Below are positions 28,635 to 64,000 of a DNA stretch of 64,000 nucleotides, piece by piece. Position numbers and translations under genes: made by a program. The stretch's first letter is position 1; every line of letters starts with the position of its first letter. The DNA is from Escherichia phage VpaE1_ev108: sequence record LR597658, one strand, 5' to 3'. The notes below the pieces were generated by a model. The model ran no database searches. It was given only the letters and a program-made list of their open reading frames with translations, and was not told the origin of the DNA.

Positions 28635-28641
28635 AATTAAT

Positions 28642-28717: not shown

Positions 28718-28814
28718 ATTTAGAGGTCAAGTGAAAGACCGCTTTGAGTCAACTGAAGACCGTAACAAATTCCACGGAGTTGAGTTAGCGGCACAACTCC
28801 AGACCTCTTCTCAC

Positions 28815-28889: not shown

Positions 28890-28890
28890 T

Positions 28891-28968: not shown

Positions 28969-28973
28969 ATTTT

Positions 28974-29049
28974 GCAGGATTAGTTCAAATGGATAGAGCA
29001 ACAGTCTACGAAGCTGTTAATAGGGGTTCGAATCCCTTATCCTGCGCCA
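28974..29049 (+). tRNA. tRNA-Arg (anticodon ACG)
   Basis: perfect acceptor GCAGGAT/ATCCTGC, D-arm GTTC..GAGC, loop ctACGaa, T-loop TTCGAAT, CCA. Confidence 0.7.
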
Positions 29050-29068
29050 ATTTAAAGAGGCTATTTAG

Positions 29069-29626: not shown

Positions 29627-29634
29627 AGATTTAA

Positions 29635-29710
29635 AGGGGATTAGTTTACAAGGTTAAAACCTCGGTCTTTGAAATCGAAGAAGTTGGTTCAATTCCAACA
29701 TCCCCCGCCA
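29635..29710 (+). tRNA. tRNA-Gln (anticodon UUG)
   Basis: anticodon stem TCGGT/ATCGA, loop ctTTGaa, T-arm GTTGG-TTCAATT-CCAAC, CCA. Confidence 0.55.
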
Positions 29711-29712
29711 AT

Positions 29713-29791
29713 GCTCCATTACTCCAATTGGCAGAGAGGCCAGACTTAAAATCTGTGTTATGTATCGGTTCGAATCCGATATGGAGTACCA
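29713..29791 (+). tRNA. tRNA with UAA anticodon (Leu by anticodon; class-I length)
   Basis: acceptor GCTCCAT/ATGGAGT, loop ctTAAaa, T-arm ATCGG-TTCGAAT-CCGAT, CCA; variable region about 8 nt. Confidence 0.45.
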
Positions 29792-29796
29792 AATTT

Positions 29797-29872
29797 AGCG
29801 GTATAGCATAACTGGCAATGCAGCAGCCTCTGAAGCTGTCCTATTAAGGTTCAAATCCTTATGCCGCTGCCA
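29797..29872 (+). tRNA. tRNA-Gln (anticodon CUG)
   Basis: anticodon stem GCAGC/GCTGT, loop ctCTGaa, T-arm TAAGG-TTCAAAT-CCTTA, CCA. Confidence 0.6.
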
Positions 29873-29903
29873 CTTCTAAGGATTCTTGCGAGAGTCCTTA
29901 AAT

Positions 29904-29979
29904 GTGGCCTTATCATAAACGGTAATGACCCATGCTGTGAACATGGTCTATACGGGTTCAAATCCCGTAGGTCACCCCA
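29904..29979 (+). tRNA. tRNA-His (anticodon GUG)
   Basis: anticodon stem CCATG/CATGG, loop ctGTGaa, T-arm ACGGG-TTCAAAT-CCCGT, CCA. Confidence 0.65.
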
Positions 29980-29984
29980 ATTTA

Positions 29985-30061
29985 TAGTCCAAGTAGCTTA
30001 TATGGTTAAAGCGCGTGTCTGAAAAACATGAGAAGAGGGTTCAAATCCCACTGGACTACCA
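29985..30061 (+). tRNA. tRNA-Phe (anticodon GAA)
   Basis: perfect acceptor TAGTCCA/TGGACTA, loop ctGAAaa, T-loop TTCAAAT. Confidence 0.6.
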
Positions 30062-30077
30062 ATTTCAAAGGTGCTTA

Positions 30078-30812
30078 ATGAAAGAGATGACAGAACAAGG
30101 TAAGGAGATTTTTAATCTCTTAAAAACCGGTAAAGGGTTCTCTAACCCACTTATTACTGGTGCAGCAGTTCTCGGTGGAACCGTAGCTGCTTCTACATCA
30201 CTTGTAAGCTCTATTAGTTCTGTAACAGACCCTACAATGAAGGAGAAACTTGTTGCTGCTGGACTTACAACAGTCCTTCTAAACAGCTTTACAACAAGCC
30301 TTACAAGCACTACAGCAACTACTAAAACTCTGACAGACTACGGTCAAAAGTCTATTGATGAGTTTTCATCACGTATGCAGGTAGCAAAGGGGTATTCCAA
30401 TGTTATGGGTGCAGCAGGAGAACAAGTTGGTTGTACACCATTCAGTGGTATCATGGGTGTTGCTACAGAGTATGGTCAAAAAGCTATTGACATGATGAAC
30501 AGTACACTAGATAGTGTTAATGGTGTGTTAAGTGACTTGCAAGATGCTATTGATAAGGGTCTTGATACTGTTTCTGATTTAGCTAATCAGGCTGTTAGTA
30601 AGATTAATGAAGGTATTTCAAAGATTACAGCTTATGCAGATGAAGTTGTGCAGATGATTGAAGAAGAAGCTGCCCTTATTGCAGAGTACCTTAAAACGAA
30701 TATCAATGGGTTCTTAGCAGGTATCTTACCAGACTGGTTTGATGATGCCTGTAAAACTGGTGTAATTGACACTATTGCAACACCAGAAATGAAGAGCGCA
30801 TTACAGAAATAA
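30078..30812 (+). CDS. hypothetical Ser/Thr-rich coiled-coil protein
   Basis: start moved to ATG 30078 because ORF-track start 30015 lies inside tRNA-Phe; 244 aa. Confidence 0.5.
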   Translation: MKEMTEQGKEIFNLLKTGKGFSNPLITGAAVLGGTVAASTSLVSSISSVTDPTMKEKLVAAGLTTVLLNSFTTSLTSTTATTKTLTDYGQKSIDEFSSRMQVAKGYSNVMGAAGEQVGCTPFSGIMGVATEYGQKAIDMMNSTLDSVNGVLSDLQDAIDKGLDTVSDLANQAVSKINEGISKITAYADEVVQMIEEEAALIAEYLKTNINGFLAGILPDWFDDACKTGVIDTIATPEMKSALQK

Positions 30813-30813
30813 T

Positions 30814-30906
30814 GGAAGATTAACCCTAAAAGGTAAGGGAGCAGTTTGCTAAACTGCCAGTAGCTGAGAAATCGGTGTACCAGTTCAAGTCTGGTATCTT
30901 CCTCCA
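30814..30906 (+). tRNA. tRNA-Ser (anticodon GCU), long variable arm
   Basis: 93 nt; acceptor GGAAGAT/ATCTTCC, anticodon stem GCAGT/ACTGC, loop ttGCTaa, T-arm ACCAG-TTCAAGT-CTGGT, CCA. Confidence 0.65.
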
Positions 30907-30910
30907 ATTT

Positions 30911-30986
30911 GAATCCGTGACAGAAATGGCTATGTGCCTGTCTGCAAAACAGGTTTATAAGGGTTCGAGTCCCTTCGGATTCTCCA
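30911..30986 (+). tRNA. tRNA-Cys (anticodon GCA)
   Basis: perfect acceptor GAATCCG/CGGATTC, anticodon stem CCTGT/ACAGG, loop ctGCAaa, T-loop TTCGAGT, CCA. Confidence 0.7.
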
Positions 30987-42688: not shown

Positions 42689-50707
<8,019 letters not shown>

Positions 50708-50709: not shown

Positions 50710-51882
50710 ATGGCAGTAGGTGAAATTCAAATTAGTGCCTTGCCTCAAGCATCCTTACCAATTGACCTTAGTGATATCTTCCATCTTAAGCAGGGTATTG
50801 AGGATAAGAGGTGTACTCTTGAGCAATTACTTGCTCCACACGCAAGCCTAAGAAATAACCCTCATGGTGTTACTAAAACACAAATTGGTTTAGATAATGT
50901 TATTAATGCTCTTCAGTTAGTCGCTGCAAATAACTTATCAGATATTGTTAATGTAGCTGAGGCAAGAGCAAATCTACAGATTATGTCTTCAGAAGAGGTT
51001 AATAACCTTGTCCAGCAACATATCAAGGACAAGAGTAACCCACACAATACAACTAAGGCACAGGTTGGTTTAAGTAATGTTCAGAACTGGACAACATCTA
51101 ATCTGTATAACGAAGATGCAGATAAGTATGCTACAGCAAGAGCAGTAAATAACTTGTACAAGGCTGTTCAGGCTTCTTATCCAGTAGGTACTATCCATCT
51201 TTCTATGAACTCTGCAAACCCTTCCACATACTTAATTTGTGGAGGTACTTGGGAGTTAGTTTCAAAAGGCAGGGCATTGGTTGGCTATGACTCTGATACA
51301 AGACCAGCAGGTTCTGTATTTGGCGCTTCAACTGTCACTTTGTCAGTTAATAACATGCCTCAGCACTCCCACTCTGTGTCTCTTAGCGGTGGTGGTCACA
51401 CTCATAATGCAACTGTGTCAATTTCAGCTTTTGATTATGGGACTAAGACTACAAACTCTTTTGACTATGGGACAAAAGCTACTAACACAACTGGTAACCA
51501 TACACACAGTGTGTCAGGTAACACTAGCACCAATGGTACTCACAACCATGATGTGTATCCTAGAGAAAATGATGGCACTGGTAATGCTGTGGCTGACTCT
51601 AATGGTGGTGGTGCAAGAAGGACATCAAGGACTTCTAGTGATGGTGCGCACTCACACAGCTTTAACGTCACATCTGGTGCATCAGGTGACCACAGCCACA
51701 CGGTTGGTATTGGTGCTCACAGTCATACAGTTGGTATTGGTTCACATACGCATAGTGGCACTGTAACAGTTTCTTCTTCTGAACATACACATAGTGGCAA
51801 TACAAATAGTGTTGGTGGAGGTCAGGCAGTTAATATTGAACAGCCATCCTTCGTACTGTATGTATGGCAGAGAACAGCTTAA
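50710..51882 (+). CDS. tail fibre protein with C-terminal His-x-His repeat array
   Basis: C-terminal third has at least 8 HxH units (GGGHTHNATVS, GNHTHSVSG, GAHSHSFNV, GDHSHTVGIGAHSHTVGIGSHTHSG, EHTHSG). Confidence 0.65.
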   Translation: MAVGEIQISALPQASLPIDLSDIFHLKQGIEDKRCTLEQLLAPHASLRNNPHGVTKTQIGLDNVINALQLVAANNLSDIVNVAEARANLQIMSSEEVNNLVQQHIKDKSNPHNTTKAQVGLSNVQNWTTSNLYNEDADKYATARAVNNLYKAVQASYPVGTIHLSMNSANPSTYLICGGTWELVSKGRALVGYDSDTRPAGSVFGASTVTLSVNNMPQHSHSVSLSGGGHTHNATVSISAFDYGTKTTNSFDYGTKATNTTGNHTHSVSGNTSTNGTHNHDVYPRENDGTGNAVADSNGGGARRTSRTSSDGAHSHSFNVTSGASGDHSHTVGIGAHSHTVGIGSHTHSGTVTVSSSEHTHSGNTNSVGGGQAVNIEQPSFVLYVWQRTA

Positions 51883-51891
51883 TTTCTTTAC

Positions 51892-51913
51892 AGGGGCTTT
51901 ATAGCCCCTTTTA
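51892..51913 (+). terminator. hairpin, weak terminator
   Basis: AGGGGCT-tta-TAGCCCCT followed by TTTTAAG. Confidence 0.35.
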
Positions 51914-51928
51914 AGAGGAAAATTTATA

Positions 51929-54280
51929 ATGGCAGATTACAAATTGAGTGAGCTAAACTCAATCGACACAATCCGTTCAGATGACCTTCTTCATGTCAGA
52001 GTTAAAAAGAGACCTGAAATGCTGGGTGATGAAGACCGTCGAATGACCTATCAAGATTTCTTAACATCTTTTAAGCTTGAAAGATTTGTTCAGATTGCTG
52101 GTAGCACTATGACGGGTGACTTAGGAATTGTTAAGCTACTTTACGGTGGCAAGGCTGTATTCGACCCCACAGGCTCTTCTGAGATTACTGTTGGTGATGT
52201 TTTAAAGACTTTTAAAATCAACGCAAACGGCCTTAAACTAACTATTGCAGACGCTTCAAGGTCGGCAACTGTTTATCATACTTTGAATAAGCCAAGCCCT
52301 AATGAACTTGGGATGAGAACTAATGAAGAGAATGACGCAAGGTATGCAAGACTAGCCGTGAATAATACCTTTAGAGGTACTCAAGCTATCCTCTCTGACA
52401 ATGAAGCGCTCATTATTAAAAATATCACTCAAGGTGCTCCACTCTATCTTCGTGGTCAAGATGCAGATGGTACTAACAGATGGTATCTAGGTAATGATAA
52501 TAGGGGTACAAATAATCTTGTATTGAAGAATGTAAAGTCTGACGTTTCAATTGCTATTTTAGAGAATTTGGTGACAGTCAACAGAACTCTTCAAATTGCT
52601 GGCCAAGTTCAGCCTTCAAGTTTTGCTAACTTAGATGCTAGGTATTTTACCCAGACAGCAGCTAATCAGAGATTTGCGCAGTTAGCTGGCAATAATACAT
52701 TTAGTGGTTCTAATATTTTCACTAATTTTGTTATTAAGAAGAATGCTAATGCTATTACTATTCAAAATGTAGATACAACTGCGGCTTTGTATATCCAAGC
52801 AAGGAAATCAGATGGAACTAATAAGTGGTACATTGGTAATGATGGTGATGAAAACATTGTAAACATCTATAACTATTTAGCAAAAACACAAATCTCATTA
52901 GGTAACACCATTACCATGAGCAGAACAGTCCAAATTGGTGGTCAAGTACAACCTTCTGATTGGACTAACATTGATTCTAGATATATTCCGGCAGCCACTT
53001 TGAGTAATCTCCCTAAACTTAATGTGTCTAATACTTTTACAAATGTGCAAACTATTGTATCTAACAACGAGGGTTTGGTATTAAGGAACTTGACACAGGG
53101 GCAGCCACTATATATCCGTGGTGTTGATACTGAGAATGTTTCTAGATGGTGGTTAGGTGTAGGTGGTCCAAACTCTAATGTGGTAACACTTAACAACAAC
53201 TATTCTGACACTAAAATCTCACTTGGTGGCTCATCAGTAATGACTAATAAGAGCTTAGCTATTACTGGTCAAGTACAACCTTCTGACTTCTCTAACTTAG
53301 ATGCTAGATACTATACCCAATCTGCCGCAAACGCAAGGTATATGCTTGCAAGTATCACTGGTACAGCTTCTGAAAAGGATGGTGATGGTGTTGCATGGGA
53401 TGCAAAAACAGGTCTTTATAAGGTTACTAACACCACTGGACAGTCTTCTTCACTTGTATATCACATGTTTTTAGGGACTAGTTCTACACCATCTGCACAA
53501 TTAAAGTTTTCGTTTAAAAATGGTGGGATGTGGTATAGAACATCAAGAGATGCCTATGGCTTCGAAGTTAATTGGTCTAAAGTTTACACGGAAGCACAAA
53601 AACCAACCCCTTCAGAGATTGGTGCATACACTAAAGCTGAAACTGACCAGAAAATTGCAACAGCAATTAGTGACTCTACAGACCTTAACAAAATCTATCC
53701 AGTTGGTATTGTAACGTGGTTTAACAGTAATGTTAACCCTAATACAGCACTCCCTGGTCTAACTTGGACGTACCTGAATAATGGTGTTGGTAGAACTATC
53801 AGAATCGCAGCAGCAAACGGTTCAGATGTTGCTACAACTGGTGGTTCAGATTCTGTGACATTAGCTGTTGGTAACTTACCATCACACACTCACAGTTTCT
53901 CTGCTACCACTTCATCTTTTGATTATGGTACGAAGAACACTAACAGTACTGGTGCACATACCCATTCAGTTAGTGGTACTGCTGCATCTGCTGGGCAACA
54001 CGCACACAGAATTTCACAGGGTGACAACGCTAACGTTTCATCAGGTAGAGTCGCATCTTCAAACTCTGCTCAGACCCATGTTGGTTGGACTGAAAATGAT
54101 GGTGTTCACACCCACTCAGTTAGTGGTACTGCTGCATCTGCTGGTGGACATGCTCACTCTGTAGGTATTGGTGCTCACAGCCACACAGTTAGTGGTAACA
54201 CTGGTGGTACAGGTTCTGGTTCAGCATTTAGTGTTACTAACCAGTTCTACAAGTTAATGGCTTGGGTAAGAACTGCTTAA
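51929..54280 (+). CDS. long tail fibre protein with internal repeats and C-terminal HxH array
   Basis: 783 aa; repeated blocks (..LYLRGQDADGTNRWYLGND.. / ..LYIQARKSDGTNKWYIGND.. / ..LYIRGVDTENVSRWWLGVG..); C-terminal HTHSFS, GAHTHSVSG, HAHSVGIGAHSHTVSG. Confidence 0.65.
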   Translation: MADYKLSELNSIDTIRSDDLLHVRVKKRPEMLGDEDRRMTYQDFLTSFKLERFVQIAGSTMTGDLGIVKLLYGGKAVFDPTGSSEITVGDVLKTFKINANGLKLTIADASRSATVYHTLNKPSPNELGMRTNEENDARYARLAVNNTFRGTQAILSDNEALIIKNITQGAPLYLRGQDADGTNRWYLGNDNRGTNNLVLKNVKSDVSIAILENLVTVNRTLQIAGQVQPSSFANLDARYFTQTAANQRFAQLAGNNTFSGSNIFTNFVIKKNANAITIQNVDTTAALYIQARKSDGTNKWYIGNDGDENIVNIYNYLAKTQISLGNTITMSRTVQIGGQVQPSDWTNIDSRYIPAATLSNLPKLNVSNTFTNVQTIVSNNEGLVLRNLTQGQPLYIRGVDTENVSRWWLGVGGPNSNVVTLNNNYSDTKISLGGSSVMTNKSLAITGQVQPSDFSNLDARYYTQSAANARYMLASITGTASEKDGDGVAWDAKTGLYKVTNTTGQSSSLVYHMFLGTSSTPSAQLKFSFKNGGMWYRTSRDAYGFEVNWSKVYTEAQKPTPSEIGAYTKAETDQKIATAISDSTDLNKIYPVGIVTWFNSNVNPNTALPGLTWTYLNNGVGRTIRIAAANGSDVATTGGSDSVTLAVGNLPSHTHSFSATTSSFDYGTKNTNSTGAHTHSVSGTAASAGQHAHRISQGDNANVSSGRVASSNSAQTHVGWTENDGVHTHSVSGTAASAGGHAHSVGIGAHSHTVSGNTGGTGSGSAFSVTNQFYKLMAWVRTA

Positions 54281-54359: not shown

Positions 54360-54554
54360 ATGCCTACAATCCTAGCAATTCTTCTAAAAAATCTAGGTAG
54401 CTTCTTCTGGAAACTCATTTTATCCCTCCTAAGTGAATACATGATTGAGAAAGTGTTCTTTAAGCTTGCAAGATACCTTGCGAGTAAAACAGACACACCT
54501 ATTGATGATGAGTTCGTAGATAACTTAGAAAAAGCTTTTAAGGGGGAGAAATAA
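54360..54554 (+). CDS. small membrane protein (holin-like?)
   Basis: 64 aa, hydrophobic N-terminus ILAILLKNLGSFFWKLILSLL, GAGGTG SD. Confidence 0.4.
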   Translation: MPTILAILLKNLGSFFWKLILSLLSEYMIEKVFFKLARYLASKTDTPIDDEFVDNLEKAFKGEK

Positions 54555-54926
54555 ATGAAGTGGCTAGAGGAAGCTTTTAAAAATAATATTGGTGCAATTG
54601 TAGTTGGTATTTTTAGTGTTATTGGGATGTATACCACTATGCAAGTTTCAAGTGGTAAACAAGAAGTGTCTGTCACAACAAAGTTACAGCAGCTAGATAA
54701 TTATTCCAAAAGTAACTATTCAGCTATTCGTGATTTACAGTCTGACATGAGACTGATTCAGCTAGGGATGGAGAACCAGAAAGTTCAGTTAGAGAATGTT
54801 AAGGGTGAAAACGCAAAACTTACCAAAACTCTTGATAAATTCTCTGACAGTGTGAATAATCTGGCTCAATCAGTATCAGCCCTCCAAGCTATTACTGAGA
54901 AGAACACAAAGAATACTGAAAAATAA
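54555..54926 (+). CDS. membrane-anchored coiled-coil protein
   Basis: N-terminal TM segment IGAIVVGIFSVIGMY followed by coiled coil; 123 aa. Confidence 0.45.
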   Translation: MKWLEEAFKNNIGAIVVGIFSVIGMYTTMQVSSGKQEVSVTTKLQQLDNYSKSNYSAIRDLQSDMRLIQLGMENQKVQLENVKGENAKLTKTLDKFSDSVNNLAQSVSALQAITEKNTKNTEK

Positions 54927-54931
54927 AATTT

Positions 54932-54960
54932 AAGGCTCCTTTTTACGGGAGCCTTTTTTG
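54932..54960. terminator. terminator hairpin between convergent blocks
   Basis: AGGCTCC-tttttacg-GGAGCCT followed by TTTTTTGTTTT on plus; AT-rich run on the other side. Confidence 0.6.
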
Positions 54961-54962
54961 TT

Positions 54963-55862
54963 TTACTTACCTACTGACAGAGGTGCTTCAATCTTCCCTG
55001 CATGTTGGTAGTTGTTAATGCCACCAATAAAATCACTTGCAGTAAGATGTTTTAAGTCACTTAAAGTGTTAAGTGGTAGCCCAATCTCAAAAGTAGGTGC
55101 ATGGAACTCTTCATTGTTCATCAGTTCATAAACCTGCTTCATATGGTTATGATAAATCTGAGTATCTCCAAAGACACCTATCAAGTATCGTGGAGTGTAT
55201 CCAGTCATCTTACAAAGAACTTCTAAGATGAAGCCATAAGACGCAATATTAAACGGAAGTCCTAAAAAGGTGTCTACAGAACGCTGATACCATTGTAAGT
55301 CAACTTCACCTTCATTAGTGATATAAATCTGAAACAGAACATGGCAAGGTGCTAAAGCCATCGAGTTAGCTGAAATATCTGCTGCATTCCAAGCATTAAC
55401 AAGCATGTAACGGTCTGTGATATCACCTTTCATCTTCGTTACTAAGGTTTCTAACTGGTCTACAACACAACCATTATGACCCTCAAAGTTTCTCCACTGA
55501 ACCCCGTAGATTCTACCACCTGCATCCTCTAACCAGTCTTGTTCAGAGGAATAATTAGAGCTTAACCAGCGTTTAAAATCATCTGACCAGATAGTCCAGC
55601 GTTCCCCATCATTTTCACCCCAAGTACGGTAACGAAGTTCACCAAGCTTATTCTCACCGTTCAGGAACCATAAAGCTTCCCCAATAACTTGCCGTGTAAA
55701 CACCTGTTTAGATGTTAAGAGTGGAAAACCAGTACGCATATCAAAGCGAAACTGTGGTGGAGCAAATGCAGAGATAACATCTCCAGTTCTTGTAGTACGC
55801 AGTTCACCAACGGATAAAACATGGTTCAGGATATTTTTGTAACTTGTATCTGCTTGTGACAT
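54963..55862 (-). CDS. thyA: thymidylate synthase
   Basis: 299 aa; conserved motifs EALWFLNGE, catalytic ALAPCHVLFQ, no interruption. Confidence 0.85.
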   Translation of the reverse strand: MSQADTSYKNILNHVLSVGELRTTRTGDVISAFAPPQFRFDMRTGFPLLTSKQVFTRQVIGEALWFLNGENKLGELRYRTWGENDGERWTIWSDDFKRWLSSNYSSEQDWLEDAGGRIYGVQWRNFEGHNGCVVDQLETLVTKMKGDITDRYMLVNAWNAADISANSMALAPCHVLFQIYITNEGEVDLQWYQRSVDTFLGLPFNIASYGFILEVLCKMTGYTPRYLIGVFGDTQIYHNHMKQVYELMNNEEFHAPTFEIGLPLNTLSDLKHLTASDFIGGINNYQHAGKIEAPLSVGK

Positions 55863-55863
55863 A

Positions 55864-56409
55864 TCAAAAGTGTCCTTTTACTTGTGGAACATAAATTTCA
55901 AAGGTTGCTTTACCATCCTCTGATGGTTTTGACTGTACCTTTGTAAATACACGGTTATCATACAGCTTCTCAAAGAAGTTTTCAAAAGGTAAATACACAG
56001 TGGCCTCTTCAGTAACTTTATGGAAAACTGTATGGAAAACTACACCAGCATATGGTAAAGCATTGACAAGGACACCTGCACCACCAATTACAAAGATATC
56101 TTCATCAATAGAGCTATCGAGATACTTCAAAAATGCTCCAAAGGATTCTTTGCTGGCCTTAGCATACATTACCTCATCTTTGCCAAAGTCTATGCCTAAG
56201 TATGGTACAGAGTTTGTTAAGATGAGGTTTGCACGTTCTGGTAAAGGTTTACTACCCAGAGTCTTGAAAGTCTCATTCCCCATTACTACTAAGTTGTTTT
56301 TAGTGAGTCTCTTAAACTCTTGCATATCCTGTTTATGTCGAGGCCACGGCATACCAGTTGGAGTACCAAACTCCCCATTTTCACCACTTGCAAAGATTAA
56401 TTTAATCAT
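55864..56409 (-). CDS. frd: dihydrofolate reductase
   Basis: 181 aa; MIKLIFASGENGEFG..GMPWPRHKQDMQEFKRLT..VVMGNETF; stop abuts thyA start. Confidence 0.8.
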   Translation of the reverse strand: MIKLIFASGENGEFGTPTGMPWPRHKQDMQEFKRLTKNNLVVMGNETFKTLGSKPLPERANLILTNSVPYLGIDFGKDEVMYAKASKESFGAFLKYLDSSIDEDIFVIGGAGVLVNALPYAGVVFHTVFHKVTEEATVYLPFENFFEKLYDNRVFTKVQSKPSEDGKATFEIYVPQVKGHF

Positions 56410-56666
56410 TTTGTAAATCCTTTCTTAATGAACCAGTTGATAACATTCTTCACAGCTTTATTGCTATGGTAGATTAAGTGTGGTGTAGGTTGGTATGAAC
56501 CATAAGCCCAGAAAGCAATGATTTCATTACATCCTGTACACCTTGTACTCTCTTCAGCAATATGACCGTTGACTATTTCACTTACCTCGCCTTGTAAGTC
56601 TGTACACCCACAATGTGGGCATCGGATAGGTGTTCCATCAGACTCATAGCAGTGTTCAATTTTCAT
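56406..56666 (-). CDS. small Cys-rich zinc-binding protein
   Basis: 86 aa; CPHCGC ... CTGC motifs. Confidence 0.45.
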   Translation of the reverse strand: MKIEHCYESDGTPIRCPHCGCTDLQGEVSEIVNGHIAEESTRCTGCNEIIAFWAYGSYQPTPHLIYHSNKAVKNVINWFIKKGFTK

Positions 56667-57182
56667 CTATTTAACCTCAAAAACTGGCTCAAGAACCAAT
56701 ATAAAGTCTACACAGTCATCTTCTTCATCCAGAATACCATCAAAGTTCTTAGGAACGAAGTCGAAGAGGCTCATCACAAAGCAGTCAGAAGTGACCTTGA
56801 TAGTTCCTCCCATGTTCTCTACAGTTAACACTGTACGACTTTCTTTTACCTCCCTCAGAAGATTACCCACAAAGTCATCTAAGAAGTACTTCATTAGTGA
56901 CTTAAAACCTTTAGGATAATCTGTACCAGAGTATGTTTCAATCTGAGGCACAAGCTTAACATTTATACTAGTCTTTGTTAAGAACGTGTTAGAGAACATA
57001 CTATCAGGTAACTTACAAACACTCTTTCCAGTACCTTCATGTTCAATCTCAACAAAACCAGCTTCGTCGCCACATGTAACTATTTTAAAAGATGCTTCAT
57101 TCTCATACTGTGAAGCCATAAACTTTTTAAGCATCTCTTTAAGGAAATCTGCATGAGCATCTTGTAAGTAGATATCAATCAT
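56667..57182 (-). CDS. hypothetical protein
   Basis: 171 aa ORF. Confidence 0.5.
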   Translation of the reverse strand: MIDIYLQDAHADFLKEMLKKFMASQYENEASFKIVTCGDEAGFVEIEHEGTGKSVCKLPDSMFSNTFLTKTSINVKLVPQIETYSGTDYPKGFKSLMKYFLDDFVGNLLREVKESRTVLTVENMGGTIKVTSDCFVMSLFDFVPKNFDGILDEEDDCVDFILVLEPVFEVK

Positions 57183-57195
57183 AGTTAATCACCTA

Positions 57196-57555
57196 TTATG
57201 GGAACAAACACTTAATGTCATCGTTTTTGAAAACGAAACTTGTGTAGTTATGACCATCAACATCCAACCAAACAGCCTGAACATCTACACCATCAAGATT
57301 CTGGTAAAGCTCTTTGATGAAGTGGTCTTTCACAATCTGGCTACTAGTGGTTTCCAGCTTGATGTTTGAGATTGCTGAACCTACAGCCATATAGCCCATG
57401 ACACGTTTCTTCTCAGTGTGCTTAATCTTACCATCTTTGTAAGCCATAATGAGATTGGAGAGAATCTTCACACCATAATACTTTTCAAGGTGAGTTGGTA
57501 CGCCATAAAAGCCTAATGCGAAGTTTTCAGAGTGGATAATGTTTTCACGTTTCAT
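57196..57555 (-). CDS. hypothetical protein
   Basis: 119 aa ORF. Confidence 0.5.
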   Translation of the reverse strand: MKRENIIHSENFALGFYGVPTHLEKYYGVKILSNLIMAYKDGKIKHTEKKRVMGYMAVGSAISNIKLETTSSQIVKDHFIKELYQNLDGVDVQAVWLDVDGHNYTSFVFKNDDIKCLFP

Positions 57556-57556
57556 A

Positions 57557-57856
57557 TTAATCTGCCAACCTTAAATTGAAATTAACACCAAATTTTTCAC
57601 ATACTTCCAACATATACTCAAGGGAGACGTTACCAGTGAGATGGATTATGTTGGATACACGAGCCTGAGAGATACCACAAATTTTAGCAACTTGCTCTTG
57701 AGAAAGACCTCTGGATTTAATCTCTCTCTTAAAACGATGTGCAACGAAGTCTCTCATTTCGTCTACATCCATTGGACAAATATAACTCTCCATTTCAGCC
57801 TCTCTATCAGCCTCCCAATCATCTTGTGGGGCATAAGGGTCAAAAACCTCATTCAT
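57557..57856 (-). CDS. XRE-type helix-turn-helix DNA-binding protein
   Basis: LSQEQVAKICGISQARVSNI HTH; start set to ATG 57856 (GGAAG SD) 2 nt after upstream stop. Confidence 0.55.
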   Translation of the reverse strand: MNEVFDPYAPQDDWEADREAEMESYICPMDVDEMRDFVAHRFKREIKSRGLSQEQVAKICGISQARVSNIIHLTGNVSLEYMLEVCEKFGVNFNLRLAD

Positions 57857-58061
57857 CTTTCTTCTTCCGTTTGCGTGAAGTGTCAATCAATGAATCTATG
57901 TTTGTAGCCCTAACCTTTTCACGTTCATCATTAAGATAATCATCAAGAGCCTTTTCAATCTGTGAATCATCTTGACAGATAACTGTAAAGACTGTAAATC
58001 CGTCTGTATCGTCAATTATCTTACCATAACCGCTTCTGGGATGTAACTTTTTAAGAGCCAT
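57849..58061 (-). CDS. hypothetical small protein coupled to HTH gene
   Basis: 70 aa ORF, Lys-rich C-terminus. Confidence 0.4.
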   Translation of the reverse strand: MALKKLHPRSGYGKIIDDTDGFTVFTVICQDDSQIEKALDDYLNDEREKVRATNIDSLIDTSRKRKKKDE

Positions 58062-58062
58062 A

Positions 58063-58446
58063 TCAAATACCTGTGCAGCTTCTATTTTCTAAGAAATACT
58101 CCACACCATACATAGCTTTTTGCATCAAATCTTCTTTAAACTGAATACGATGATTGAGCATAGTCTGTACATCAATATCGTCATGGTGTTTCTCTTTAAT
58201 ACTTGCAGATTGCAGGAAATACTCTGCAAGAACACGATACTGGTAGTCAGTCACCTTATCGGTCATCTCTGTCAAAGACTCTTCAGAGATTGGTTTAAGT
58301 AGCTCACCATTAGCTAGGGCAACACCTTTTACAATCTGGCAAGTGTCTTCTGGAACACCTGATAAGTCCACATTTGGAAGTTCTGTTGCATTGACTGGTA
58401 AATTCATTGCCATAACCATTGCAGCAGCTAATAAAATCTTTTTCAT
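58063..58446 (-). CDS. secreted/periplasmic protein
   Basis: signal peptide MKKILLAAAMVMAMNLPVNA; 127 aa. Confidence 0.5.
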   Translation of the reverse strand: MKKILLAAAMVMAMNLPVNATELPNVDLSGVPEDTCQIVKGVALANGELLKPISEESLTEMTDKVTDYQYRVLAEYFLQSASIKEKHHDDIDVQTMLNHRIQFKEDLMQKAMYGVEYFLENRSCTGI

Positions 58447-58555
58447 AATGACCTCAAAGTTATATTAAATTTTGTATTACATTGAGTATAAAAATAAGCT
58501 ATAACACCTGACTTGTCAACAGATTTTATAGCTTATTTGGCAGATTTTTTATAAG

Positions 58556-58800
58556 GCTACTGCCATCCTTCCATACATTACCTTACCACACCTAACCATA
58601 CCTAACCAAACTACACCATACAATACCTTGTTAAAAGACCCTTTTAAAGACCTTTTAAAAAGGTAAGTCTCATTTTAATGTAGCTGAGACTAACTACCCA
58701 CACCAGACCCTACCTTACCACACCAGACCTCACCCTACCCCACCATACCGTATACTACCTCATTAAAAGACCCTGTTTAAAGACCTTTTAAAAAGGAGCC
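58556..58800. repeat. long direct repeat LR1 (~250 bp) with 70 bp core shared with LR2
   Basis: core 58631-58700 near-identical to 60023-60093; core motif AAGACCCTNTTTAAAGACCTTTTAAAAAGG present twice in LR1; CA-rich degenerate flanks. Confidence 0.7.
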
Positions 58801-58815
58801 TCCGAAGAGGCTGCC
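58790..58815 (-). terminator. intrinsic terminator (minus strand)
   Basis: minus-strand GCAGCCTC-ttcg-GAGGCTCC hairpin followed by TTTTTAAAAGG. Confidence 0.5.
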
Positions 58816-58823
58816 TAGTCAAC

Positions 58824-59264
58824 TTAGAAAGGTTTTCTACGTTGCTTGTTAATGTTAGCTTTCATAGCAGCTAAATGGTTTTGCTGTTCAATCAGTCGTG
58901 AACGTTCTTGATGACTAAGTGCCATAGTGTTCACATTCTCAATTGCTTGAGTGGCTTGCTTTAAAGCACGACCAATCTTACCAGACATTTTGCGTTTTGC
59001 AATAGTTGCTTGATGCTTAGGTTCAACCAAACGATAACCAACACCCATTGAAGCAACCAGATAAATCTTCTCTTCTTTAAGAAGTTTCTCAATAAACTTC
59101 TCAAGTCGGTTTAGACGTGTAAGTGCATAAGCCTTCATTTCATCTTCGTACTTAACAATGTCACCTTGATAAGTTGGCTTCACAATACCTAAGAAGGTGT
59201 CCATCTCGGAATGTGATACAGTGTCACCGTAACTAAACTTTGCTGCTAATGCTTTTGTATTCAT
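58824..59264 (-). CDS. hypothetical protein with basic C-terminus
   Basis: 146 aa ORF bracketed by LR1/LR2. Confidence 0.5.
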   Translation of the reverse strand: MNTKALAAKFSYGDTVSHSEMDTFLGIVKPTYQGDIVKYEDEMKAYALTRLNRLEKFIEKLLKEEKIYLVASMGVGYRLVEPKHQATIAKRKMSGKIGRALKQATQAIENVNTMALSHQERSRLIEQQNHLAAMKANINKQRRKPF

Positions 59265-59266
59265 AA

Positions 59267-59872
<606 letters not shown>

Positions 59873-59946
59873 TTAGTTGATTGTTAAGTTGTTTGTAAAG
59901 AACCCTCAACAGAAGACTCTTTAGAAACTTGGTAGATTTTTAACGT

Positions 59947-60185
59947 GGCTACTACCATCCACCCATACTTTACCTAACCAAGCCGAACATCACACAACCA
60001 GACCGAGCCGCACCCCGCCTTATTAAAAGACCCTCTTTAAAGACCTTTTAAAAAGGTAAGTCTCATTTTAATGTAGCTGAGACTAACTACCCATACCCTA
60101 CTTTACCTTACCGTACAGTACTTTACCCGACCACACCGGACAATACTTAACCCTACCTCACCCGACCGGACATCACTTAAAAACC
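59947..60185. repeat. long direct repeat LR2
   Basis: GGCTACTACCATCC ... core 60023-60093 matching LR1; CA/CG-rich degenerate flanks. Confidence 0.7.
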
Positions 60186-60423
60186 CTTTTCAAAGACTCT
60201 TAAGTGATGCTGGTGAGTACCCGTTGGTTTATGATGCTCAGTATACTCACCAAATTTTCTATGTCAACAACTTTTATAAAAAAGTTCTGATAGCTATATG
60301 CGTCACGAAACAAAAGATTGTAAACAAGACACCCATTGCAAAAGATGTGTCCAAAAGCTTACTTGCAACGTATGACAATACAAAGACAACCAGTATAAAT
60401 AGAATGACTGTACTGAACATAGT

Positions 60424-61524
60424 TTACTCATAATCCCTAATAACTAGCCCTACAGGAAACTGTAAAGAACCTTTACGAGTCATCTTCTGGAACTGAACAG
60501 TTAAAGGTTTCCCGATAAACTCTTCAGGATGTTCAGCAAGATACTGTTTCTTCTCGTGTGTAGTTTTCCATGAAACATCTACAAAGACGTTAGGAAGAGT
60601 CTCTACAACGAACTTGCCATGACCACGCTTATCGGTCTTTACACCAGTCACTTTAAACTCTTCAGTGTGCATCTTCTTGTGCTTAATCAAGAAGTATGAA
60701 CGGTGACAACACTCATAGAAGGAGTCTTCAGAGATTGAACGGTACATTGCACCTTCAAACTTAGCTTCAACCCACTTATCATGAGCTTCATCAAACTCTT
60801 CCCAAGAATTTACACGGATAGTCTGTACAGGAACCACTCTACAGGTATCCCCAATCTCAACAATGGGTGAGTTATCAATAACTTCACGACGCTCAGGCCA
60901 AGATTTTGAATTGTCACAGATATCATACCAGTAGAATTTAAGAAGGTGACGGTCTGGATTGTCAGCATTCTTAATCATAGAGACAATATCTTCTAAGTCC
61001 CAACCATGAGCATAAATCTCACCATCAAAGTCTTCAACTTGTGGATGTAATTTAAGCAACAAAAGCAAATCTGGAATTAGTTCTGCTGGAACGTTGTAAA
61101 CAGTATTCTCACGAGAATAAGCTGTGAAGCTAACTGAATCAGCATCTCTTGAAATTCTACAACGAACACCATCAAGTTTTGGTTGAGCATCAGCAGGAAA
61201 TTTCAAATACTTTGCATGACTAACCTTTGCAGCATCATGAGCAAGCTGTACACCTACCTTCTCAGTATTCTGTGCAGACTCTTTTGTGTAAGCATAACCT
61301 TTACGGTCAACTTGCTTTTTATACTTAGCAGCAACTTCAAAGAGGGCTTGCTGTTCAGCATTACGCTCATTCTTTTTACCGATGTTTTTAGGCTCTGCTG
61401 TATACTCTTCAAACATCATCTTGCCATTTTCTTTACCGTAGGTTGTAATAACTTTGTCACCTACAGCAACGCATGACCAGACGTTGAAAGAGCCATCTTT
61501 ATTTTGTTTGTACAGAATTGTCAT
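60424..61524 (-). CDS. ATP-dependent DNA ligase
   Basis: 366 aa; adenylation motif I KLDGVRC, FDGEIYAHG (motif III/IV-like), size like T7-type ligases. Confidence 0.75.
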   Translation of the reverse strand: MTILYKQNKDGSFNVWSCVAVGDKVITTYGKENGKMMFEEYTAEPKNIGKKNERNAEQQALFEVAAKYKKQVDRKGYAYTKESAQNTEKVGVQLAHDAAKVSHAKYLKFPADAQPKLDGVRCRISRDADSVSFTAYSRENTVYNVPAELIPDLLLLLKLHPQVEDFDGEIYAHGWDLEDIVSMIKNADNPDRHLLKFYWYDICDNSKSWPERREVIDNSPIVEIGDTCRVVPVQTIRVNSWEEFDEAHDKWVEAKFEGAMYRSISEDSFYECCHRSYFLIKHKKMHTEEFKVTGVKTDKRGHGKFVVETLPNVFVDVSWKTTHEKKQYLAEHPEEFIGKPLTVQFQKMTRKGSLQFPVGLVIRDYE

Positions 61525-61727
61525 TTTCTCTTACCACCAATCTCTACGTCGATAACTTGAACATCGCCAGCAACATCAAACTTATGTATGATGCTTTCCA
61601 CAGTATAAGTCCAACCATCAATGCGAACCATCTCACCTTCTCGTGGAACTATTGGATTACGTTGAGCTACAGTTGTAGTGGAGTGAACAACATCATAACG
61701 ATAGATATAGTTTACTAATACTTCCAT
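61521..61727 (-). CDS. hypothetical small protein
   Basis: start moved to ATG 61727 (GAGGT SD), just below upstream stop; ORF-track start 61826 overlaps lipoprotein gene by 89 nt. Confidence 0.45.
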   Translation of the reverse strand: MEVLVNYIYRYDVVHSTTTVAQRNPIVPREGEMVRIDGWTYTVESIIHKFDVAGDVQVIDVEIGGKRK

Positions 61728-61737
61728 CGTTAAAACC

Positions 61738-61995
61738 TCACTCAATAACCGTAGTATGTGATTGACCATTTTTGCCATAGCTATAAGATGTTGTTGTTTG
61801 AGAGTTTGGGCATCTGACAACAACAATATCTCTGCTTATAGCATCACCATTGAGTTTGTAGATTTTGCAGTCTTGCATCTCTGGAGGGAGGCTGTAAGAA
61901 GCATCTTTGTTTTCATAAGATGGGTTGCAGCCAGCCAGAAAAATTACTCCAAGTGCAACCATTGCTTTCACACAACTCTTAACCTTATTGTTCAC
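61738..61995 (-). CDS. small lipoprotein
   Basis: lipobox MVALGVIFLAGC; 85 aa. Confidence 0.55.
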   Translation of the reverse strand: MNNKVKSCVKAMVALGVIFLAGCNPSYENKDASYSLPPEMQDCKIYKLNGDAISRDIVVVRCPNSQTTTSYSYGKNGQSHTTVIE

Positions 61996-62127
61996 GATAG
62001 TCTACCTCTCTGTATGTTTTTAAATAGTGAGTGATGAGTTCTGGTAATTCACTACGTTTAACGTTTGAACGAAGAAGTGTCCAGTCAAAACCTTTACCAA
62101 CCCTTCCCCAGAGACTGTACATTTTCT

Positions 62128-62361
62128 TCATAGCAACTCCAGAATATCAATACGTTCGCCTTTGAGTACTCCAGTACGGTCTTTTGCAATCTTACCGTCA
62201 ACGATAAGGATGTGTGTAGACCTTAAAGCATCGTTGTTAAAGGTTTTTACGAACTTGCTAGGCATGACTACAATGGACATCTCCTGAATTAACTCTGGAG
62301 TGTAGCAGTTATCATGAAGTTGCTGAATAACGTCTGCAAGTGTCATTTTTGATGTCTCCAA
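62128..62361 (-). CDS. hypothetical small protein
   Basis: 77 aa ORF. Confidence 0.45.
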   Translation of the reverse strand: METSKMTLADVIQQLHDNCYTPELIQEMSIVVMPSKFVKTFNNDALRSTHILIVDGKIAKDRTGVLKGERIDILELL

Positions 62362-62552
62362 TACTCAATGTCAATAAGTTCTTGTGCAATGCTTTTAAGG
62401 TTACCTTTCAAGAAAACCTTCTCAGAACCTGAAAGAGATGAATTGTCAATTAACCTGTTCATTCTCTCAAACAACTTCTGCTTACGATTTTTGATAGTCT
62501 CCTTTGAAGCACCTTTCATCATTGCTGCATGGGTTCTTCCACGATGGCTCAT
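62343..62552 (-). CDS. hypothetical small basic protein
   Basis: 69 aa ORF. Confidence 0.4.
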   Translation of the reverse strand: MSHRGRTHAAMMKGASKETIKNRKQKLFERMNRLIDNSSLSGSEKVFLKGNLKSIAQELIDIEYWRHQK

Positions 62553-62603
62553 AATCCCTCCTATACAAGATGTAGTATAAGGTACTCTTCCCTGAGCACC
62601 TTG

Positions 62604-63119
62604 TCAACTTAGTTTTGCAAACTCTCCGTGGAGTTTAATAGCAGCTTCACAGTAAGCTTTATGGGCTTCTTCTTCTGTTGTGTATGTTCCTATATGTATG
62701 GTCTTGCCATTATGGTTAATCTGGGCTATCCACTTACCAGACTTGCTTCTACTTGTGCCTTTTAAGTTTTTTGATGTTCTAGGTTGTCTCCTATTAGACA
62801 TGTTCTGCTCTTTTGTGGCCTCTCTTAGATTGTCCCAAGCGTTATTCAAACCATCTCCATCTTTGTGGTCAATGTGTTTATCAGGCCACTTACCTGTCAT
62901 CCAGAACCAAGCAATTCGGTGATTGCCTGTCCTGTATCCTAAAATCTGTGTGTGCATATACACACCAGACCTTGTGCGCTTAATTGCTCCGGCTTGGCTT
63001 CCAATAACCACCCTACTACTATGTGGAGGTCTGCCAATCCATGTTAAGACCCCTGTTTCGGGGTCATAATCTAACCAAGACTTTAACTGTTCATGTGTGA
63101 ATCCACAATCTCTCATCAA
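62604..63119 (-). CDS. HNH homing endonuclease with C-terminal AP2-like DNA-binding domain
   Basis: HNH motif HIDHKDGDGLNNAWDNLR; AP2-like GKWIAQINHNGKTIHIGTYTTEEEAHKAY; start overlaps DNA polymerase stop (ATGA). Confidence 0.75.
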   Translation of the reverse strand: MMRDCGFTHEQLKSWLDYDPETGVLTWIGRPPHSSRVVIGSQAGAIKRTRSGVYMHTQILGYRTGNHRIAWFWMTGKWPDKHIDHKDGDGLNNAWDNLREATKEQNMSNRRQPRTSKNLKGTSRSKSGKWIAQINHNGKTIHIGTYTTEEEAHKAYCEAAIKLHGEFAKLS

Positions 63120-64000
63120 TGCACCTCATACCAGCTCTTACCAACCTTACCTGTGCCAGTTACAAGCGTCTCACTCTTCAAACCTAAATTCTTAGATGCC
63201 TGACCATACATCCAGTCAGTTATGGCTTTAACTTCTTGAGTCATACTTTCTGGGCATTCCCAACTGTTTTCATCGTGGTATGCCAGCAAAAGCCTAGCAC
63301 CGATTGCTGGTTTTCGTCCATTTAATTTTGTCAACCCTTCTTCACATGCTCTTCTACAAGCAAGGTTAATTGCCTCATTTTGAATCTGAGCCTCCGAACC
63401 CATAAGCAAATAATTCAATAACTTATGTGGAGATTTACACCACAACCAAGCTCCAGCAACCTTTACGAAGCCCCCTTTAGAGATTGCAGCGGTCTTACCA
63501 AACACCTCTTCAAGTGCCTTTTTAGTTGCTTTGTAGTCAGCTTCCAAGTCATCTAGCAGCTTCTTAATTTTAGGCAAACGAATAAAGTAAGTCTGTTTAG
63601 TCAGTGCACCTTCCTGAGTAGTTGCAGCTTTAATCGTCTTAGCAAACTTCTCATCACCTGCACCGAACAGCAGTGCATAGATACCATTCTTAGCTTTCTT
63701 ACGGCCTTTGCTAATCTCATGGAGAAGGTTCTCATCCTGAGTAGCTCGACAAGTCAAGATATCCTGCTCATCATTCAAGCTAAAGTAAATACTGTTCAAT
63801 GTATGTGCATCAGTCCCTGAATAGACAACGTACAGGTCATTCTCAGAGTCATAGCGAAGGTACTTATCAATCTCTGGGTTCAGGTACTCATCAAAATGTT
63901 TGCAGTAATAGCGTCCATCTTCTTGACGAATGAACTCAATTTCTTCTTTACCTTGCGTTACCGCTTTGGTGAAGTCTTTATCACCCATAAAGTTACAAAG
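63116..64000 (-). CDS. family-A DNA polymerase, C-terminal part (gene continues beyond window end)
   Basis: palm motifs KNGIYALLFGAG (motif B-like) and LLAYHDE (motif C); ends ..GKSWYEVH; upstream portion lies beyond 64000. Confidence 0.7.
   Translation of the reverse strand, partial: LCNFMGDKDFTKAVTQGKEEIEFIRQEDGRYYCKHFDEYLNPEIDKYLRYDSENDLYVVYSGTDAHTLNSIYFSLNDEQDILTCRATQDENLLHEISKGRKKAKNGIYALLFGAGDEKFAKTIKAATTQEGALTKQTYFIRLPKIKKLLDDLEADYKATKKALEEVFGKTAAISKGGFVKVAGAWLWCKSPHKLLNYLLMGSEAQIQNEAINLACRRACEEGLTKLNGRKPAIGARLLLAYHDENSWECPESMTQEVKAITDWMYGQASKNLGLKSETLVTGTGKVGKSWYEVH

Follow-up and report, generated by a model that had tools for sequence, protein, structure and literature searches.

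RESULTS

Spike and tail fibre genes of the phage

The DNA analysed here, a 64-kb stretch referred to below as the window, comes from a Felixounavirus, a Felix O1-like myovirus with 99.8% DNA identity to Escherichia phages vB_EcoM_ULIM8 and ULIM3, and a DNA search with the window returned 262 related records. It encodes a central spike (47034-47657, 207 aa) and, following the genes of the baseplate wedge and platform, a short tail fibre (STF; 50710-51882, 390 aa) followed by a long tail fibre (LTF; 51929-54280, 783 aa). Both fibre genes lie on the + strand, and the coordinates given for these ORFs in an earlier sequence-only reading were confirmed. The gene order is the same as in Bas63, LMP25, E9, BPS17L1 and humlepung. 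Bas63 (Escherichia phage JohannRWettstein, record MZ501086) is the subject of a 2025 cryo-EM paper (PMC12609058; PDB 9NDY), in which its fibres gp26 and gp27 are described with a collar, a needle and a head and its spike gp21 with H188/H190. Because all three are described there, the fibre and spike features reported below are real but already known. The features, with short-shaft and baseplate-binding roles at STF residues 1-155 assigned after Bas63 (PMC12609058), are as follows.

47034-47657, + strand: central spike (puncture apparatus), homologue of Bas63 gp21, with a phi92 gp138-type N-terminal domain
47595-47606, + strand: HTHH (H188, T189, H190, H191) at the spike apex, predicted iron site involving H188 and H190 of three chains
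50710-51174, + strand: STF residues 1-155, baseplate-binding domain and short shaft, homologue of Bas63 gp26 (PHROG 2097, tail fibre, E=6.5e-138)
51175-51363, + strand: first part of the STF collar domain, residues 156-218 (Pfam Gp10_C; aligned to T4 gp37 811-881)
51281-51766, + strand: 161-aa ORF in the +1 frame within the STF gene, not a gene (frame broken in relatives)
51364-51549, + strand: putative outgoing needle strand of STF, residues 219-280 (H-x-H at 219, 230, 264 and 278; two FDYGTK repeats)
51550-51648, + strand: head (tip) loop of STF, residues 281-313, predicted receptor-binding surface (aligned to the T4 tip subdomain)
51649-51792, + strand: putative returning needle strand of STF, residues 314-361 (H-x-H at 314, 328, 337, 346 and 359; 27-nt tandem repeat at 51685-51741)
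51793-51882, + strand: C-terminal collar strand of STF, residues 362-390, with stop codon (aligned to the T4 C-terminal collar 1010-1026)
51929-53356, + strand: LTF residues 1-476, baseplate-binding domain and rod with three repeats, homologue of Bas63 gp27 (PHROG 4277, 1334 bits)
53357-53680, + strand: LTF residues 477-584, gp37_C-type domain also found in phage Mu tail fibre S (Pfam PF12604, E=6e-20)
53696-53884, + strand: collar domain of LTF, residues 590-652 (aligned to the STF collar)
53885-54007, + strand: putative outgoing needle strand of LTF, residues 653-693 (H-x-H at 653, 677 and 691)
54008-54106, + strand: head (tip) loop of LTF, residues 694-726, predicted receptor-binding surface (aligned to the T4 tip)
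54107-54184, + strand: putative returning needle strand of LTF, residues 727-752 (H-x-H at 727, 741 and 750)
54185-54280, + strand: C-terminal collar strand of LTF, residues 753-783, with stop codon (conserved)

The PHROG matches extend over the full length of both fibres. Among relatives, conservation is 0.67-0.87 for STF residues 1-155 and 0.72 for residues 362-390; for LTF it is 0.82-0.86 in the collar and 0.86-1.0 in residues 753-783, where DNA identity within the genus is 0.96-0.98. The LTF rod matches Pfam gp37_trimer in three stretches (E=1e-62), carries direct DNA repeats spaced about 330 nt apart and is mosaic among relatives, and the domain that follows it (residues 477-584) matches residues 330-430 of PDB 8JU3 chain A (E=5e-21). 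Around the start of the putative returning strand of LTF, a match to the Pfam Phage_fiber repeat covers residues 723-735. Both collars resemble the C-terminal domain of T4 gp10, a tail collar fold, with matches to Pfam Gp10_C and to PDB 2FKK and 5HX2. For STF residues 154-269 the Pfam score is 64.4 bits against a cut-off of 27, and for the LTF collar it is 26 bits, just below that cut-off. The STF collar also aligns with the gp37 collar (811-881) and with gp10 itself; gp10, a baseplate protein, differs in that its collar lacks an inserted long H-x-H needle.

His-x-His arrays in register with the iron motifs of T4 gp37

The sequence-only reading had claimed dense His-x-His arrays at the C-termini of both fibres, and these were readily confirmed, with nine motifs in STF and six in LTF at the residues listed above. 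When the counts were compared with 20,000 shuffles of each protein, none reached nine for STF (mean 1.4, maximum 7) and none reached six for LTF (mean 0.3, maximum 3). No other ORF of at least 100 aa in the window contains more than two. The GAHSHTVGIG unit of STF corresponds to the 27-nt tandem repeat, which is present in 2.1 copies with 83% matches. Rather than being absent from homologues, the motifs hold their register across nine Ounavirinae fibres, in which the loop between the arrays is hypervariable, and the number in short fibres varies within the subfamily (9, 7 or 6).

The same regions are homologous to the tip of the T4 long tail fibre protein gp37. STF residues 146-362 match residues 18-228 of PDB 2XGF, the gp37 tip (E=3e-29), and LTF residues 647-762 match residues 93-218 of the same structure (E=4e-14). 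All seven T4 iron motifs (883, 915, 929, 966, 980, 989 and 998) are in register with motifs of STF, and six of the seven with motifs of LTF. Specifically, STF 219, 264 and 278 correspond to T4 H883, H915 and H929, and STF 314, 328, 337 and 346 to H966, H980, H989 and H998; in LTF, residues 653, 677 and 691 correspond to H883, H915 and H929, and residues 727, 741 and 750 to H966, H980 and H989. LTF thus differs from gp37 in having no equivalent of H998, whereas STF has two extra motifs, 230 and 359, with no T4 counterpart; lacking a solved equivalent, these two may not bind metal. Identity to gp37 differs sharply by part, at 63-67% in the stem, 23-40% in the collar and 7-15% in the tip. Along each alignment a collar is followed by four motifs (three in LTF), a variable loop, five motifs (three in LTF) and a collar strand, an order that fits a chain doubling back on itself. 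The core proposal of the sequence-only reading, that the motifs are of the metal-coordinating type found at fibre tips, is therefore borne out by homology and register with the gp37 iron motifs, and it is from this homology that we infer metal binding. T4 gp12 carries zinc at a similar His-x-His site, and the identity of the metal in the fibres here is uncertain. An AlphaFold2 monomer prediction of STF 140-390, made from a two-row alignment of window-derived sequences only, was unusable (pLDDT 32.4, pTM 0.15).

A conserved His-x-His motif near the apex of the central spike

The central spike is nearly identical to Bas63 gp21 (PDB 9NDY chain G; 205 of 207 residues, 0.990 identity, E=6e-143). 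Its residues 27-121 match Pfam PF18352 (E=6e-20; 71.5 bits against a cut-off of 26.1), which places its N-terminal domain with the gp138 type. HTHH occupies residues 188-191 within NEHTHHYYW, so that the sequence-only reading was right about the motif but not about its position, which is 16 residues short of the C-terminus rather than at the very end. A single H-x-H was reached by 19% of shuffles of the spike, and the motif is therefore not significant on chance statistics alone. Its support comes instead from conservation and from a solved homologue: H-[TV]-H-H-Y-Y-W-T-D is invariant in nine Ounavirinae spikes, down to 50% overall identity, and the motif corresponds to H188/H190 of the Bas63 puncture apparatus, which are modelled toward the trimer interior, "likely coordinating iron ions" (PMC12609058). 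Its assignment as a metal-type motif was thus upheld. Taking the orientation from Bas63 chain 9NDY_G (PMC12609058), the His-x-His of the spike apex is predicted to point into the trimer axis. By analogy with the gp21 trimer, H188 and H190 would bind one ion at the apex and give a stiffer membrane-piercing tip.

Other contractile-tail phages are known to have iron-loaded central spikes, among them gpV of P2 and gp138 of phi92 (Browning et al. 2012, as given in PMC12609058). Like them, the spike here has an N-terminal domain of family PF18352 and a His-x-His near its C-terminal apex. Direct matches between the spike and phi92 gp138 (PDB 3PQI, E=0.015) are weak. Similarity in sequence is restricted to the N-terminal domain, and at the apex of the spike here HTHH-YYW precedes an acidic tail of 16 residues.

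Divergence of the two tips and hypervariability of the heads

The loops between the arrays align with the T4 tip subdomain 932-959 (STF 281-307 and LTF 694-720; boundaries from PMC6957217), whose residues bind LPS and OmpC in T4 (PMC6957217). They are also the most variable parts of the fibres. For example, the bin at STF 281-300 has a pairwise identity of 0.16, the lowest conservation in the protein, and the bin at LTF 701-720 has 0.12. In DNA comparisons with relatives, identities above 0.9 give way suddenly, in the needle and head region, to values of about 0.4-0.5. Identity is 0.36-0.63 in the STF head loop and 0.39-0.51 in the LTF head loop, a region that is absent in phage mistaenkt. Against LMP25, STF is 0.92 identical up to position 51484, then 0.50-0.61, then 0.80-0.83; similarly, in LTF, identity remains 0.9 or higher in the collar and the final 90 nt but drops over 53915-54184. 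The receptor-binding part of each fibre is accordingly predicted to be the hypervariable loop that separates the outgoing array from the returning one (STF 281-313, LTF 694-726), and not, as the sequence-only reading had suggested, a region upstream of the repeats. The upstream difference between the two fibres consists of baseplate attachment and rod.

The two adjacent fibre genes both end in similar GAHSHTV(G/S)G units, and it might be supposed that the shared module arose by recent intragenomic duplication or gene conversion, with only the parts upstream of the repeats setting the receptor of each fibre. We consider this extremely improbable. The STF and LTF tips are about 41% identical, no closer to one another than each is to T4 gp37, which argues against a recent duplication, and the DNA-level alignment proposed in the sequence-only reading found only short shared stretches, the longest 27-71 nt at 60-82% identity. 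The upstream placement of the receptor-binding part is likewise opposed by the position of the least conserved segment of each protein, which lies between the arrays, as do the receptor-binding residues of T4 (PMC6957217). At the level of sequence, this reading is refuted. Modular exchange is indeed seen from phage to phage, affecting the tip and the LTF rod; the pattern is not one of upstream segments being traded while a shared repeat module stays in place. Such exchange raises the further idea that H-x-H stem sequences, in addition to their metal role, act as DNA-level recombination handles ("His boxes") for swapping head cassettes between phages and fibre types. In its favour, identity to relatives shifts abruptly within or beside the stem, and stem sequences are common to T4-like, Mu-like, P2-like and lambdoid fibres, with 667 matching phage records. 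However, the pattern could also reflect strong diversifying selection on the head together with purifying selection on its flanks, and we rate the handle idea slightly short of an even bet. The idea was reportedly put forward for T-even gp37/gp38 by Tetart et al. in J Mol Biol in 1998; the term "His box" itself was not found in our literature search.

A different possibility is that the His-rich repeats are mere low-complexity sequence, a G/S/T/H-rich beta-strand filler with no role in metal binding. The composition is certainly biased, with GGT, ACT, CAC and TCA codons dominant and an alternative frame open across the region, and no metal is known from any Felixounavirus fibre; none was seen in those of Bas63, whose density allowed only flexible model fitting (PMC12609058). 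Yet few histidines lie outside H-x-H motifs (18 of the 24 in STF are within them), and from Kolesnikvirus to T4 the motifs stay in register despite variation in the residues around them. Moreover, the homologous motifs of the T4 needle bind seven irons, with H929 and H931 essential and H929A and H931A lethal (PMC6957217). Repeats without a metal role are therefore very unlikely.

DISCUSSION

Probable metal-ladder tips on both fibres

We conclude that both fibres very probably end in T4-gp37-type metal-ladder tips bearing a receptor-specific head, with an ion likewise held at the spike apex. In the model that we favour, each chain would exit the collar and contribute an outgoing strand to a trimeric beta-needle of six strands, form a small head at the far end, and come back to end in the collar. 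Three His-x-His motifs, one per chain, would meet at every level of the needle and supply six imidazoles to a single metal ion in octahedral geometry (Fe2+ in T4). The resulting ladder, of up to nine ions in STF and up to six in LTF by motif count, would hold the interdigitated needle together and serve folding and rigidity rather than receptor recognition. Receptor specificity, directed at LPS for the genus, would reside in the hypervariable head loop, so that conserved needle flanks would frame a head cassette differing sharply between related phages.

The layout of collar, needle and tip is that of T4 gp37 785-1026 (PDB 2XGF), including the 9-residue GxHxHxVxI period of the returning strand. 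The tip loop is unrelated to that of T4 (4 of 27 residues identical), and the receptor of Felixounaviruses, which require the LPS core (PMC8594841), contrasts with the OmpC plus LPS of T4. In addition, the tips here are carried on much shorter, single-gene fibres. Folding of the T4 long tail fibre depends on the chaperones gp38 and gp57A, whereas no gp38-like chaperone gene was found by PHROG among the ORFs next to the fibres; for those downstream of LTF (54360-54554 and 54555-54926), the sole hits are PHROGs of unknown function and a very weak one to an Rz-like spanin (lysis; E=0.009).

Bas63 offers the closest comparison, sharing the genus, gene order and architecture, baseplate proteins gp19-gp25 that are 96-99% identical, and a 99% identical spike with H188/H190/H191. 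Both of its fibres have the gp37-like collar, needle and head, and its LTF also has six H-x-H motifs. Their topology is known through fitted predictions, since the density allowed only flexible fitting of AlphaFold models (PMC12609058). In contrast to the baseplate, identity is only 78% for STF and 68.5% for LTF, the head loops are unrelated in sequence, and an HHxH variant noted for Bas63 (PMC12609058) is absent from the LTF here. The Bas63 STF has seven motifs, two outgoing and five returning, with a third DYG repeat in place of the distal outgoing strand, whereas the STF here has nine (4 + 5) and retains a T4-like outgoing strand. Humlepung and mistaenkt share the 2 + 5 arrangement of Bas63, and the smaller number of outgoing motifs in these three phages indicates that the full ladder is not obligatory. 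The nine-motif STF, compared with seven motifs in Bas63 and T4, is a small addition, a minor variant.

Overall, the analysis adds little to published knowledge, and the structural description of Bas63 transfers to the phage studied here. One may tentatively go further, although we lean somewhat against it, and suppose both that STF (as also in LMP25, E9, BPS17L1 and Sf17) builds a nine-level metal ladder and that H-x-H units serve as handles for exchanging heads among Felix O1-like, T4-like and Mu-like phages. Were this true, the STF needle would exceed every solved gp37-type needle by two levels and be correspondingly longer. Assuming six STF and six LTF per virion, the numbers in Bas63, the ions would then total about 91 (6 x 9 + 6 x 6 + 1). 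STF 281-313 and LTF 694-726, each framed by conserved stems of the metal-binding type, are predicted to be the likely host-range determinants and are sensible targets for host-range engineering or sequence-based prediction. The difference in motif number (9, 7 or 6) may also aid modelling of needle length or metal content.

An open frame across the STF repeats

The ORF at 51281-51766 overlaps the STF repeats in the +1 frame. Its stop-free run of 168 codons is uncommon even for the composition of the region, since shuffling the codons of that region leaves the frame without a stop in 0.4% of cases, and one could imagine a real overlapping gene. In eight relatives, however, the longest open +1 runs are 98, 71, 50, 61, 60, 81, 49 and 66 codons, and no relative of less than about 85% identity keeps the frame open. 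The ORF has no PHROG match, and its translation is a low-complexity sequence rich in leucine, valine and threonine. With the frame broken in all eight relatives and no PHROG match, a gene is ruled out, its probability being practically nil, in agreement with the artefact proposed in the sequence-only reading. A similar ORF (53868-54164) overlies the repeat region of LTF.

Predicted histidine needles in both tail fibres

The spike and the two tail fibres, which the sequence-only reading had described as carrying His-x-His (H-x-H) motifs, were confirmed as open reading frames, as follows:

47034-47657 (+), spike, 207 aa; HTHH at residues 188-191, 16 residues short of the C-terminus
50710-51882 (+), short tail fibre (STF), 390 aa; nine H-x-H motifs, at residues 219, 230, 264, 278, 314, 328, 337, 346 and 359
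51685-51741, 27-nt tandem repeat corresponding to the GAHSHTVGIG unit
51929-54280 (+), long tail fibre (LTF), 783 aa; six H-x-H motifs, at residues 653, 677, 691, 727, 741 and 750

Indeed, the arrays of both fibres are dense, with counts above those of all 20,000 residue-shuffled versions of either protein: shuffled STF averaged 1.4 motifs (maximum 7; nine reached in 0/20,000) and shuffled LTF averaged 0.3 (maximum 3; six reached in 0/20,000). The motifs take up 18 of the 24 STF histidines, and among the remaining window ORFs of at least 100 aa the count never exceeds two.

The receptor-binding tip of T4 gp37 (PDB 2XGF) was matched by STF residues 146-362 (E=3e-29) and by LTF residues 647-762 (E=4e-14). 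STF also matched Pfam Gp10_C (64 bits) and PHROG 2097, while LTF matched the Pfam families gp37_trimer (three stretches), gp37_C and Phage_fiber repeat, with Gp10_C marginal. LTF residues 477-580 matched tail fibre protein S of phage Mu (PDB 8JU3; E=5e-21), which makes LTF a chimera that combines a T4-like rod, a Mu-S-like domain and a tip of gp37 type. The stretch encoding the Mu-S-homologous domain (window 53357-53680, LTF residues 477-584) is also covered by Pfam gp37_C.

To compare the tips directly, we aligned STF, LTF and the T4 gp37 C-terminus, taken from the T4 genome record. The needle iron sites of T4 gp37 comprise seven motifs, at 883, 915, 929, 966, 980, 989 and 998 (PMC6957217). 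Each of them aligns with an STF motif (219, 264, 278, 314, 328, 337 and 346, in order), and six of the seven also align with LTF motifs (all six of that fibre); STF motifs 230 and 359 differ in having no T4 counterpart. The proposal that these repeats form metal-coordinating fibre tips is supported by strong homology, and the feature is one already published for the genus in Bas63, Escherichia phage JohannRWettstein (PMC12609058).

Pairwise identity of the STF, LTF and T4 gp37 tips by subdomain, with the T4 boundaries of PMC6957217
Stem: 63-67%
Collar: 23-40%
Tip (T4 932-959; STF 281-307 and LTF 694-720 in the alignment): 7-15%

Overall, the STF and LTF tips are 41% identical, and each is 41-42% identical to T4 gp37; BLASTP aligned the two fibres at 38% over 190 residues. 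Their shared DNA is limited to stretches of 27-71 nt at 60-82% identity. These values rule out the recent duplication of the module that had been raised, the tips being as distant from one another as from T4. A tblastn search with STF matched 667 phage records, including T4-like, Mu-like, P2-like and lambdoid fibres, on which basis we call the gp37-type tip module widespread. Judged by sequence, the two tips are probably old paralogues or independent acquisitions of this module.

Receptor specificity is predicted to lie within the repeat module

Across nine Ounavirinae the H-x-H positions are kept in register, so that the motif is indeed present in homologues. Each fibre protein is least conserved in the loop that separates its outgoing array from its returning one, where mean pairwise identity drops to 0.16 (STF 281-300) and 0.12 (LTF 701-720); collars and N-termini stand at 0.7-0.9. 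Against seven relatives, DNA identity of >0.9 gives way sharply to about 0.4-0.5 where the needle and head of each fibre are encoded, with the same fall in blocks of the LTF rod, and recovers to 0.96-1.0 over the final 90 nt of LTF. The pattern is that of a mosaic of cassettes. The corresponding loop of T4 bears the residues that bind LPS and OmpC, and H929 and H931, histidines of the T4 iron motifs, are essential (PMC6957217). Since the least-conserved loop sits between the arrays and its T4 equivalent binds receptor, the receptor-binding part is predicted to lie inside the repeat module and not upstream of it, where the sequence-only reading had placed it; the upstream difference between STF and LTF is one of attachment domain and rod.

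Beyond the homology, motif register, conservation and mosaicism established here, the mechanism is modelled on that of T4 and Bas63. In both fibres the trimer would form an interdigitated needle with one ion per H-x-H level, held by six histidines, and the ions would stabilize the needle. The LPS core is the candidate ligand of the head loop, since phages of this genus require LPS (PMC8594841). One ion may be bound at the spike apex. An AlphaFold2 monomer prediction from a two-sequence alignment gave a pLDDT of 32.

The spike has a phi92 gp138-type N-terminal domain and is identical at 205 of 207 residues to PDB 9NDY chain G, 'Puncture apparatus (gp021)'. Its single H-x-H is statistically unremarkable, being reached by 19% of shuffles. 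The HTHH is nevertheless present as had been noted, and H-[TV]-H-H-Y-Y-W-T-D is invariant in 9/9 spikes, including Kolesnikvirus spikes of only 50% overall identity. H188 and H190 of the Bas63 puncture apparatus are turned inward and are likely iron ligands, as in the iron-loaded spikes reported by Browning et al. 2012 (PMC12609058).

Comparison with Bas63

For Bas63, seven H-x-H motifs were reported in STF and six in LTF, variation across the genus was placed in the two tips and in the beta-helix repeats of LTF, and the fibres were modelled only by fitting AlphaFold predictions into the density (PMC12609058). Compared directly with the Bas63 genome (MZ501086), the window is 96-99% identical in baseplate proteins, 99% in the spike, 78% in STF and 68.5% in LTF. 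The only difference worth noting is the STF motif count: seven in Bas63 (two outgoing, five returning) and nine in the window (four and five), where the outgoing strand is T4-like, unlike that of Bas63. Bas63 STF has only seven because a third DYG repeat replaces the distal outgoing strand. The nine-motif STF is common in our sample (window, LMP25, E9, BPS17L1 and Sf17); Bas63, humlepung and mistaenkt have seven motifs and Kolesnikvirus six. The window STF carries two tandem FDYGTK copies on its outgoing strand (residues 240-259; window 51427-51486; 30-nt spacing), and the third copy in Bas63, humlepung and mistaenkt replaces two H-x-H motifs.

An overlapping frame and the gene neighbourhood

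The +1-frame ORF 51281-51766, with 168 stop-free codons, had been read as an artefact. This is borne out: the longest open +1 run in eight relatives is 49-98 codons and a PHROG search with the ORF found no match, which together rule it out as a gene. A stop-free +1 frame arose in 0.4% of codon shuffles of the region and in 0 of shuffles of the N-terminal part; the ORF is a product of G/S/T/H codon composition and chance. A comparable ORF (53868-54164) lies over the LTF repeats.

The region shares 99.8% identity with Escherichia phages vB_EcoM_ULIM8 and ULIM3 and 98% with VpaE1_ev035, among 262 matching phage records that are mainly Felixounavirus. Its genes run from hub and spike through wedge proteins, a 100-aa protein, STF, LTF and two small ORFs to thymidylate synthase and DHFR on the opposite strand; this order is unchanged in every relative compared. 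The small ORFs (54360-54926, +) encode 64 and then 123 aa, the latter annotated as holin in some relatives. Directly after this block the coding strand switches (window ~54930-64000): thymidylate synthase (54963-55862) and DHFR (55864-56409) are both on the minus strand. GC skew flips there too, going from about +0.03 to -0.16. No gp38- or Tfa-type tail-fibre chaperone was recognizable adjoining either fibre gene; folding of the T4 gp37 tip requires gp38 and gp57A (PMC6957217). Elsewhere in the window, 26 tRNA genes are clustered at 26012-30986 (+), including tRNA-His(gtg), two tRNA-Ser, tRNA-Thr and tRNA-Gly, which read the commonest codons of the fibre repeat regions. Such large tRNA clusters are typical of Felix O1-like genomes.

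Variant long fibres in relatives

The long fibre of mistaenkt (Suspvirus, MN850587; L006, 5692-7893) has 733 aa, with the distal needle and the head missing entirely; the alignment gap spans window LTF residues ~687 to ~734. It keeps four H-x-H motifs (653, 677, 691 and 700), two of them almost adjacent, and would be a needle without a head loop. The long fibres of phage E9 (L002, 5654-8272) and Shigella phage Sf17 (L005, 5722-8100) have a different, larger distal insert and only four H-x-H motifs, with unrelated sequence in place of the inner outgoing and returning ones. In Kolesnikvirus SB18 (L007) and phiEa21-4 (L008), the long-fibre slot (5653-7161) is occupied by a protein of 502 aa that lacks H-x-H motifs, and more tail-fibre and tail genes come after it. 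The histidine needle of that genus is thus confined to STF, with its six motifs.
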